A DNA stretch of 655 nucleotides from Escherichia coli (GCF_003334255.1 NZ_QOWU01000202.1); one strand, 5' to 3'; counted from the first letter of the stretch, positions 1-300 are shown. Notes: generated by a model from the letters alone, not told the origin. Made by a program: numbers and translations.

Positions 1-300
1 CGCCAGCGCGATGTTGCTGCGCTCGATGCAAAATACTCGAGGGAATTAGCCGATGCGAGAGCTGAAAATGAAACTCTGCGTGCTGATGTTGCTGCTGGTC
101 GTAAGCGCCTGCGGATCAACGCCACCTGCTCCGGTACCGTGCGTGAAGCCACCGGCACCTCCGGCATGGATAATGCAACCGGCCCCCGACTGGCAGACAC
201 CGCTGAACGGGATTATTTCACCCTCAGAGAGCGGTTGATGATGATGCAGAAGCAGCTGGAAGGGGCACAGGAATATATCCGCACTCAGTGCCTGAAATAA
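1..300 (+). CDS. Rz: Rz-family i-spanin (inner-membrane spanin subunit), C-terminal ~99 codons; 5' end lies upstream of the window
   Basis: Frame 1 is open from position 1 to TAA at 298-300. Translation: RQRDVAALDAKYSRELADARAENETLRADVAAGRKRLRINATCSGTVREATGTSGMDNATGPRLADTAERDYFTLRERLMMMQKQLEGAQEYIRTQCLK*. From memory this closely resembles the periplasmic C-terminal half of phage lambda Rz (e.g. ...DVAAGRRRL..., ...PRLADTAERDYFTLRERL..MQKQLEG...). It contains a fully embedded +1-frame lipoprotein gene, the hallmark of Rz/Rz1 pairs. Two Cys residues (ATCSGT and RTQCLK) sit where lambda Rz has its periplasmic cysteines. Not in the supplied ORF track because the start codon is outside the window. 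Confidence 0.88.
   Translation, partial: RQRDVAALDAKYSRELADARAENETLRADVAAGRKRLRINATCSGTVREATGTSGMDNATGPRLADTAERDYFTLRERLMMMQKQLEGAQEYIRTQCLK
39..43 (+). promoter_or_regulatory. Shine-Dalgarno sequence for Rz1, located inside the Rz coding sequence
   Basis: GAGGG at 39-43, with a 9-nt spacer to the ATG at 53-55. Spacing and sequence are typical of an E. coli-type ribosome-binding site. Confidence 0.55.
53..112 (+). other. Rz1 lipoprotein signal peptide plus lipobox (type II signal peptidase substrate); predicted lipidated Cys at codon 20
   Basis: MRELKMKLCVLMLLLVVSA followed by C. The -3 to +1 residues V-S-A-C fit the lipobox consensus [LVI][ASTVI][GAS]C. The +2 residue is Gly, not Asp, which is consistent with Lol-dependent outer-membrane sorting. 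Confidence 0.7.
53..238 (+). CDS. Rz1: Rz1-family o-spanin (outer-membrane lipoprotein spanin subunit), embedded in the +1 frame of Rz
   Basis: ORF 53-238 (61 aa, TGA at 236-238) lies entirely inside the Rz reading frame, shifted +1. Translation: MRELKMKLCVLMLLLVVSACGSTPPAPVPCVKPPAPPAWIMQPAPDWQTPLNGIISPSESG. Signal peptide with basic n-region (R,K), hydrophobic core and lipobox V-S-A-C (Cys codon 110-112). The mature part is about 29% proline and contains the motifs CVKPP..PPAWIMQP..PDWQTPLNGIISPSE, which I recall as near-identical to lambda Rz1. GAGGG Shine-Dalgarno at 39-43, 9 nt upstream of the ATG. An alternative in-frame ATG at 68 would give a shorter signal peptide; 53 is preferred because of the SD and the basic n-region. 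Confidence 0.88.
   Translation: MRELKMKLCVLMLLLVVSACGSTPPAPVPCVKPPAPPAWIMQPAPDWQTPLNGIISPSESG

Follow-up and report, generated by a model that had tools for sequence, protein, structure and literature searches.

The reading frame at positions 53–238 of the analysed DNA is, with a probability of about 95%, the Rz1 gene of an E. coli prophage of the lambdoid (Stx-phage-like) type and would encode the outer-membrane subunit (o-spanin) of a two-component spanin. It is wholly embedded in the gene of Rz, which ends at position 300, and begins in the +1 frame at nucleotide 221 of Rz. This assignment draws on homology, on sequence features, on the +1 embedding, on the position in a holin-endolysin-Rz cassette, and on purifying selection of the embedded frame; what is said below about the mode of action is modelled on lambda Rz1. 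None of the sequence features argues against the identity as Rz1. Rz1 is a textbook case of a gene embedded out of frame and near-identical alleles from Stx phages have been catalogued, so that little is added for biology; the finding is already known, and there is no novel reading for Rz1 itself. Its practical value lies in a correction of annotation. In addition, the analysis of Rz and Rz1 provides a clean worked example of dual coding with an internal negative control.

Genomic context and annotation

The window, i.e. the whole stretch of 655 bases that was analysed, is 100% identical to positions 30013–30667 of Escherichia phage PhiR12_3 (PV340552), which was deposited as a complete genome and contains the full lysis cassette. 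The same degree of identity was observed for prophages of many E. coli chromosomes, and Stx phages of the VT2-Sakai type are 92–93% identical. In PhiR12_3, the gene order is holin S, lysozyme R, two small ORFs, the gene labelled "endopeptidase Rz", which is Rz, and the DNA-packaging (terminase) genes. The frame-1 translation of the window matched PHROG 13 "Rz-like spanin" (E 2.4e-49), and the full-length Rz taken from the identical phage record shares 70% of its residues with lambda Rz. The coordinates of all features are listed in Table 1. For the CDS at the right end of the window, PV340552 gives the name "hypothetical protein; DNA packaging", and related records call it "terminase"; about 300 nt between Rz and this CDS contain no annotated gene. 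Promoter and terminator scans of the window found none, a repeat search of the window yielded only short, chance-like matches, and an Rfam search of the whole window gave no match at E values up to 1.

Table 1. Coordinates of the features in the window (counted from its first base) and of their counterparts in other records
Feature	Position	Strand	Remarks
Rz (i-spanin), 3' two-thirds	1–300	+	Frame 1; codons 57–155, stop codon 298–300
Second +1-frame open stretch of Rz, 63 codons	Rz nt 25–214 (L001 2857–3045; tail in window 1–45)		Directly upstream of Rz1
Shine-Dalgarno-like GAGGGA (putative)	39–44	+	Purine-rich, 8 nt 5' of the Rz1 ATG; read from the sequence
Rz1 (o-spanin) ORF, 61 codons + TGA	53–238	+	ATG 53, TGA 236–238; +1 frame of Rz
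Predicted lipoprotein signal peptide, residues 1–19	53–109	+	n-region MRELKMK, core LCVLMLLLVV
Lipobox V17-S18-A19-C20 and Gly21 at +2	101–115	+	Lipobox 101–112, Cys20 110–112, Gly21 113–115
Variable proline-enriched linker GSTPPAPVP	113–139	+	TSKQSVSQ in lambda; from the alignment to lambda Rz1
Cys30, in PCVKPP	140–142	+	Aligned to lambda Rz1 C29; invariant in 79 homologues
Proline-rich region and C-terminal domain, KPPAPPAWIMQPAPDWQTPLNGIISPSESG	146–235	+	Pfam Rz1 match
ORF over the conserved element, labelled "Rz-like spanin" (VT2-Sakai orf48, Stx2a_WGPS9 gp63)	288–392; L002 1788–2048; L300 1505–1738	+	PHROG 6954, category "lysis"
Conserved non-coding element, ~175 nt	318–492; lambda NC_001416 ~46,868–47,040; L002 ~1818–1992	+
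Next annotated CDS, first 18 codons	602–655	+	ATG at 602; ~110 nt past the conserved element

Rz1 is unannotated in the source phage record, where the corresponding positions 30065–30250 of PV340552 are covered by the entry "endopeptidase Rz" only. Similarly, the RefSeq annotation of identical E. coli prophages (e.g. NZ_CP060083) lists a "lysis protein" and misses Rz1. The missing entry is an annotation gap and not evidence against the presence of the gene; both PV340552 and the RefSeq annotation of the E. coli prophages require correction. In some records, an unrelated ORF downstream of Rz bears the label "Rz-like spanin".

The short interval between position 300 and approximately position 310, i.e. 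from the stop codon of Rz to the left edge of the conserved element, is a recurrent insertion point of accessory genes in related phages. Lambda and Stx2a_WGPS9 carry bor on the minus strand at this site, Lyz12581Vzw a Rha-like regulator, and phage 2851 KilA-N together with another ORF.

The embedded frame encodes a member of the Rz1 family

The protein of 61 residues that is encoded by the embedded frame has the sequence MRELKMKLCVLMLLLVVSACGSTPPAPVPCVKPPAPPAWIMQPAPDWQTPLNGIISPSESG. It matched the Pfam family PF06085 (Rz1) with E 3.7e-21 over residues 20–60 (model positions 1–40 of 41) and PHROG 3198 with E 1.7e-31; NCBIfam contained no model that matched Rz1 or the Rz fragment. The exact sequence is present in NCBI under the name "Rz1 family lipoprotein". 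A tblastn search found the protein in 400 phage records, only few of which annotate rz1; Stx2-converting phage 86 and AU5Stx1 are among those that do. PMC6139136 assigns VT2-Sakai, 933W, Min27 and related Stx phages to the embedded family of lambda o-spanins. The traits of an embedded o-spanin are likewise present here: a match to the family profile, a lipobox Cys, a residue other than Asp at +2, the +1 embedding, and a cognate Rz within a holin-endolysin-spanin cassette.

A reading of the DNA made from the sequence alone (the sequence-only reading) had already proposed an Rz1 with the full set of o-spanin features, namely a VSAC lipobox followed by Gly, a mature domain of about 41 residues with roughly 29% proline, and a single internal Cys at the position of the lambda disulfide. 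Each of these features was confirmed. The predicted signal peptide contains a basic n-region and a hydrophobic core of 10 residues, and the precursor passes a PROSITE-type lipoprotein rule. Residues 1–19 align with the 19 residues that are boxed as the signal sequence in lambda Rz1 (PMC5295617), and cleavage would occur after residue 19. The mature chain would comprise 42 residues including the lipidated Cys and 41 residues after it; it contains 12 Pro, which corresponds to 28.6% and 29.3%, respectively. C30 is the sole further Cys of the mature chain, and the remaining one (C9) belongs to the signal peptide and would be lost upon cleavage. Upstream of the start codon, the purine-rich block presumably acts as a Shine-Dalgarno-like site; its counterpart (GAGGGA, AAGGAG or AAGGGA) is retained in 78 of 79 distinct homologues.

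The alignment to lambda Rz1 that had been suggested as a check gave 70% identity from end to end; its only gap is one residue long and falls in the linker. Lambda Rz1 (YP_001551744; PF06085) is embedded in the +1 frame of its Rz at the same relative position, and in both cases the genes belong to a holin-endolysin-Rz cassette. The lambda protein has 60 residues compared to 61 in the window. Both possess a lipobox Cys at position 20; the second Cys is residue 29 in lambda and residue 30 in the window. The segment PP(x)PPAWIMQP(x)PDWQTPLNGIISPSE is nearly identical. Differences concern the lipobox, which reads VSAC in the window and VVGC in lambda, the +2 residue (Gly versus Thr), and the linker, which in the window is one residue longer and contains four Pro. 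Moreover, lambda P34 and P43 are replaced by Ala in the window protein, whose total number of Pro is 12 compared to 10 in lambda.

The relationship to Stx phages is closer. Rz1 of VT1-Sakai, Min27 and Stx2-converting phage 86 is 85–95% identical to the window protein, with unchanged linker and lipobox; the value is 95% for VT1-Sakai and Min27. The Rz backbone of Stx phages is 86–98% identical to that of the window. The signal peptide contains Leu14 in the window versus Pro14 in most Stx-phage alleles, and the C-terminus reads SPSESG versus SSSENG in many of them; these differences are minor and allelic. T4 PseT.3, P2 LysC and the unimolecular T1 gp11 are also outer-membrane lipoproteins that disrupt the outer membrane as the final step of lysis. 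However, they belong to unrelated sequence families, and their gene architecture is of the overlapped or separated type instead of the embedded one. A proline-rich region is missing from T4 PseT.3 (PMC6139136). The Pfam LysC model matched the window protein with an E value of 0.16 only.

The ten positions of lambda Rz1 at which single substitutions block lysis are P32, P33, P35, P36, I39, P42, P44, W46, L50 and I54, whereas P34 tolerates Ala and C29 forms the disulfide of the homodimer (PMC5295617). In the pairwise alignment, all ten lysis-sensitive positions and C29 are conserved in the window protein, and the Ala of its PPAPP falls exactly on the tolerant P34. Members of the lambda o-spanin family differ at P34, and their variable linker gains prolines (PMC6139136). 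The linker GSTPPAPVP could, at most, make a difference to how far the spanin reaches or how stiff it is.

The Rz1 frame is intact and constrained in homologous Rz genes

Homologues were collected from viral contigs and reference records with the window Rz and lambda Rz as queries. The 163 loci, which contain 79 distinct Rz coding sequences, were picked by similarity of the Rz protein and not of Rz1. In all 79 distinct genes the Rz1 frame is uninterrupted; it encodes 31 distinct proteins of 60–61 residues. Stop codons or frameshifts in the +1 frame, which would speak against a functional Rz1, occurred in none of the 79 sequences or 163 loci. No homologue deviates at the initiator Met, Cys20 or Cys29/30. 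At +2, every homologue carries Gly, Ala or Thr; Asp, the Lol-avoidance signal at this position, is absent, in line with the sorting to the outer membrane predicted from Gly at +2. In Rz itself, the periplasmic Cys99 and Cys153 (Cys152/153 across the homologues) are invariant. As an internal control, the 63-codon open stretch located in the same +1 frame directly upstream of Rz1 was used. It is interrupted in 62 of the 79 distinct sequences, which corresponds to 126 of the 163 loci.

An unusual conservation of synonymous sites of Rz within 53–238 had been anticipated as a consequence of dual coding, and it was observed. The diversity at third codon positions of Rz is 0.281 upstream of the overlap, 0.096 within it and 0.366 downstream (nominal Mann-Whitney p 4e-8); it is thus about 3-fold lower inside 53–238 than outside. 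A trough of approximately 0.01 extends over Rz codons 106–130, which correspond to the proline-rich and C-terminal domains of Rz1, and the diversity remains higher across the signal peptide and the linker. A comparison of the window with lambda gave pS values of 0.57 upstream, 0.22 in the overlap and 1.05 downstream (nominal Fisher p 3e-6). The corresponding pN values are 0.22, 0.16 and 0.22. Variants that are silent in Rz and change Rz1 are realised at 15% of the possible sites in the overlap versus 46% in the control (nominal Fisher p 1e-7). Variants that create a stop codon in the +1 frame are realised at 0 of 23 possible sites in the overlap versus 6 of 26 in the control. All p-values are to be read as nominal, because the 79 sequences are related and mosaic; the argument is therefore borne by the effect sizes and by the internal control. 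These sequence comparisons indicate that the embedded Rz1 frame is under purifying selection, as expected for a dual-coding constraint.

Alternative explanations

An open +1 frame may result from the codon usage of Rz without having a functional product, and a second such frame of 63 codons does exist immediately upstream within Rz. The probability of this was estimated by recoding Rz with synonymous codons in 20,000 trials, either uniformly or weighted by usage. The stretch of 61 codons remained stop-free in 13% (uniform) to 27% (usage-weighted) of the recodings, and due to this chance openness the length of the ORF was rejected as evidence for Rz1. By itself, the open frame carries little weight in this case; what decides are the matches to the Rz1 families and the tests of conservation. 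An ORF of 40 or more residues with a lipoprotein signal arose in only 0.08–0.3% of the recodings, and this null model is conservative because the overlap itself shapes the Rz protein sequence. Given that the upstream frame is broken in most homologues and the Rz1 frame in none, that the Pfam Rz1 and PHROG 3198 matches are strong, and that the suppression of synonymous changes is specific to the overlap, the probability of a mere chance frame is negligible. The claim of the sequence-only reading that the ORF is functional thus stands. Another candidate for the real gene is an ORF of 156 residues on the minus strand (46–516), which matched PHROG 17757 (unknown function) with E 7e-44, though only over the part that is antisense to Rz. 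The codons of this ORF are exactly antisense to those of Rz, so that it stays open whenever Rz lacks the codons TTA, CTA and TCA. Furthermore, it is interrupted in 38 of the 79 homologues, including all of the lambda type, and its N-terminal half crosses the non-coding element, which lacks any conserved frame. Its role as the real gene can be practically discounted, and PHROG 17757 is best read as a shadow-ORF family. The minus-strand ORF 224–520 was likewise rejected as a shadow ORF.

If Rz1 is not the cause, the low synonymous variation of Rz over 53–238 might stem from RNA structure, from a cold spot of recombination, or from a younger segment that was recently exchanged. The lysis genes of lambdoid phages are mosaic, local divergence may vary for historical reasons, and the sequences are not independent. 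However, the overlap is not merely a younger segment, because its pN is close to that of its flanks. The depletion is specific to changes that alter Rz1, variants creating stops are absent, the trough coincides with the proline-rich and C-terminal domains while the linker still varies, and the protein matches curated Rz1 profiles. A cause unrelated to coding is therefore extremely unlikely. It is also conceivable that the frame is a true Rz1 homologue that has become vestigial in this prophage lineage, being unexpressed or unneeded. Prophage copies of the window are common in E. coli chromosomes, and defects are frequent among prophages. In addition, Rz and Rz1 of lambda are dispensable for plaque formation under standard laboratory conditions. 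Against a vestigial state stands the identical sequence in the complete genome of PhiR12_3 with its full lysis cassette. Rz1 carries no disabling changes; it has kept its start codon, the Shine-Dalgarno-like block, the lipobox, both Cys and each of the ten residues that are sensitive to mutation. We thus consider a vestigial Rz1 very unlikely and prefer the reading as an intact o-spanin gene.

Proposed role of Rz1 in lysis

By analogy to lambda, the Rz1 precursor of 61 residues would be exported, lipidated on Cys20 and cut by signal peptidase II. Sorting to the outer membrane would follow, because the residue at +2 is Gly and not Asp. The lipoprotein is expected to dimerise via Cys30, and its C-terminal region would bind the C-terminus of the inner-membrane subunit Rz; the resulting complex would therefore span the periplasm. 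After the peptidoglycan has been removed by the action of holin and endolysin, the complex of Rz and Rz1 would fuse the inner and outer membranes and in this way complete lysis.

A conserved element downstream of Rz

The non-coding element that follows Rz was found in 432 phage records. The identity is 80–86% for Stx and other lambdoid phages, 74–78% for lambda-like phages, and 73% for Salmonella phage S137. Copies also occur in genomes of E. albertii, Intestinirhabdus and Raoultella; the chromosomal copies in other enterobacterial genera presumably belong to prophages. The element always follows the lysis cassette, together with any morons inserted there, and precedes the next gene module. 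Its distance from the stop codon of Rz is 0, ~230–250, 430–500 or ~730 nt, and the genes inserted in between include bor, Rha-type regulators or KilA. In lambda, the element is situated between bor and lambdap78. The right edge is a sharp junction, beyond which the sequences diverge completely. In one locus (L029) the end of an IS1 truncates the element, and in another (L241) it is split by a different insertion.

Of the 78 variants, at most 23 are free of stop codons in any one frame of the element. The lengths of the variants range from 158 to 175 nt, and the differences are mostly not multiples of three. The ORF of the orf48 type that covers the element was rejected as a spanin, as it possesses neither a signal peptide nor a lipobox. 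Its frame is truncated to 34 residues in the window, broken in lambda, and stop-free in 23 of the 78 variants. The label "Rz-like spanin" that RefSeq records give to this ORF is very probably a propagated mis-annotation.

A secondary structure of the element was derived by hand and assessed with a MAFFT alignment of 32 variants. The proposed helices pair in 96.2% of the cells compared to 93.3 ± 0.3% in column shuffles and 36–59% in slid controls, values that have to be read in the light of the structure having been derived from the same sequences on which it was tested. Pairs changed on both sides number 10 compared to 4.2 ± 1.4 in shuffles and 1–6 in slid controls, and represent few independent compensatory events, mainly in the lineages of S137, L226 and lambda and in a TCCTGT/ACAGGA group. 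The covariation score was 0.175 versus 0.120 in shuffles, and none of 500 shuffles reached it. A central hairpin within GGG...CCC is retained with at least 8 different stem sequences. G.U pairs occupy 117 cells of the helices and A.C pairs 14; this excess points to an RNA of the plus strand, the orientation in which late transcription runs. Folded as a single sequence, the element does not exceed shuffled sequences in stability (z +0.5 for the plus strand and +1.5 for the minus strand).

No Rfam family corresponds to the element at E values up to 1, and a literature search found no published description of it. Several known RNAs were considered and rejected: PreS/LPR1 of lambda maps between ea10 and ral, LPR2 has been assigned to the region of 6S RNA, and AgvB and AsxR are both Rfam families, for which the Rfam search gave no match. 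We regard the element as a candidate for a new structured RNA motif. Possibly the late transcript carries here a structured RNA as yet undescribed, which might serve, for instance, in processing or stability; this reading is tentative and falls somewhat short of even odds.

One record annotates a consensus promoter on the minus strand inside a lambda-type copy of the element. Further copies were detected on short contigs or contigs of metagenome-assembled genomes, namely on one of 351 nt assigned to Pseudomonas yangonensis (L291) and on one of 468 nt assigned to Thiomicrorhabdus (L299), as well as on contigs of metagenome-assembled genomes assigned to Nanosynbacter and Collinsella (L293 and L295). 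These copies in unrelated taxa most likely result from contamination during assembly or binning.
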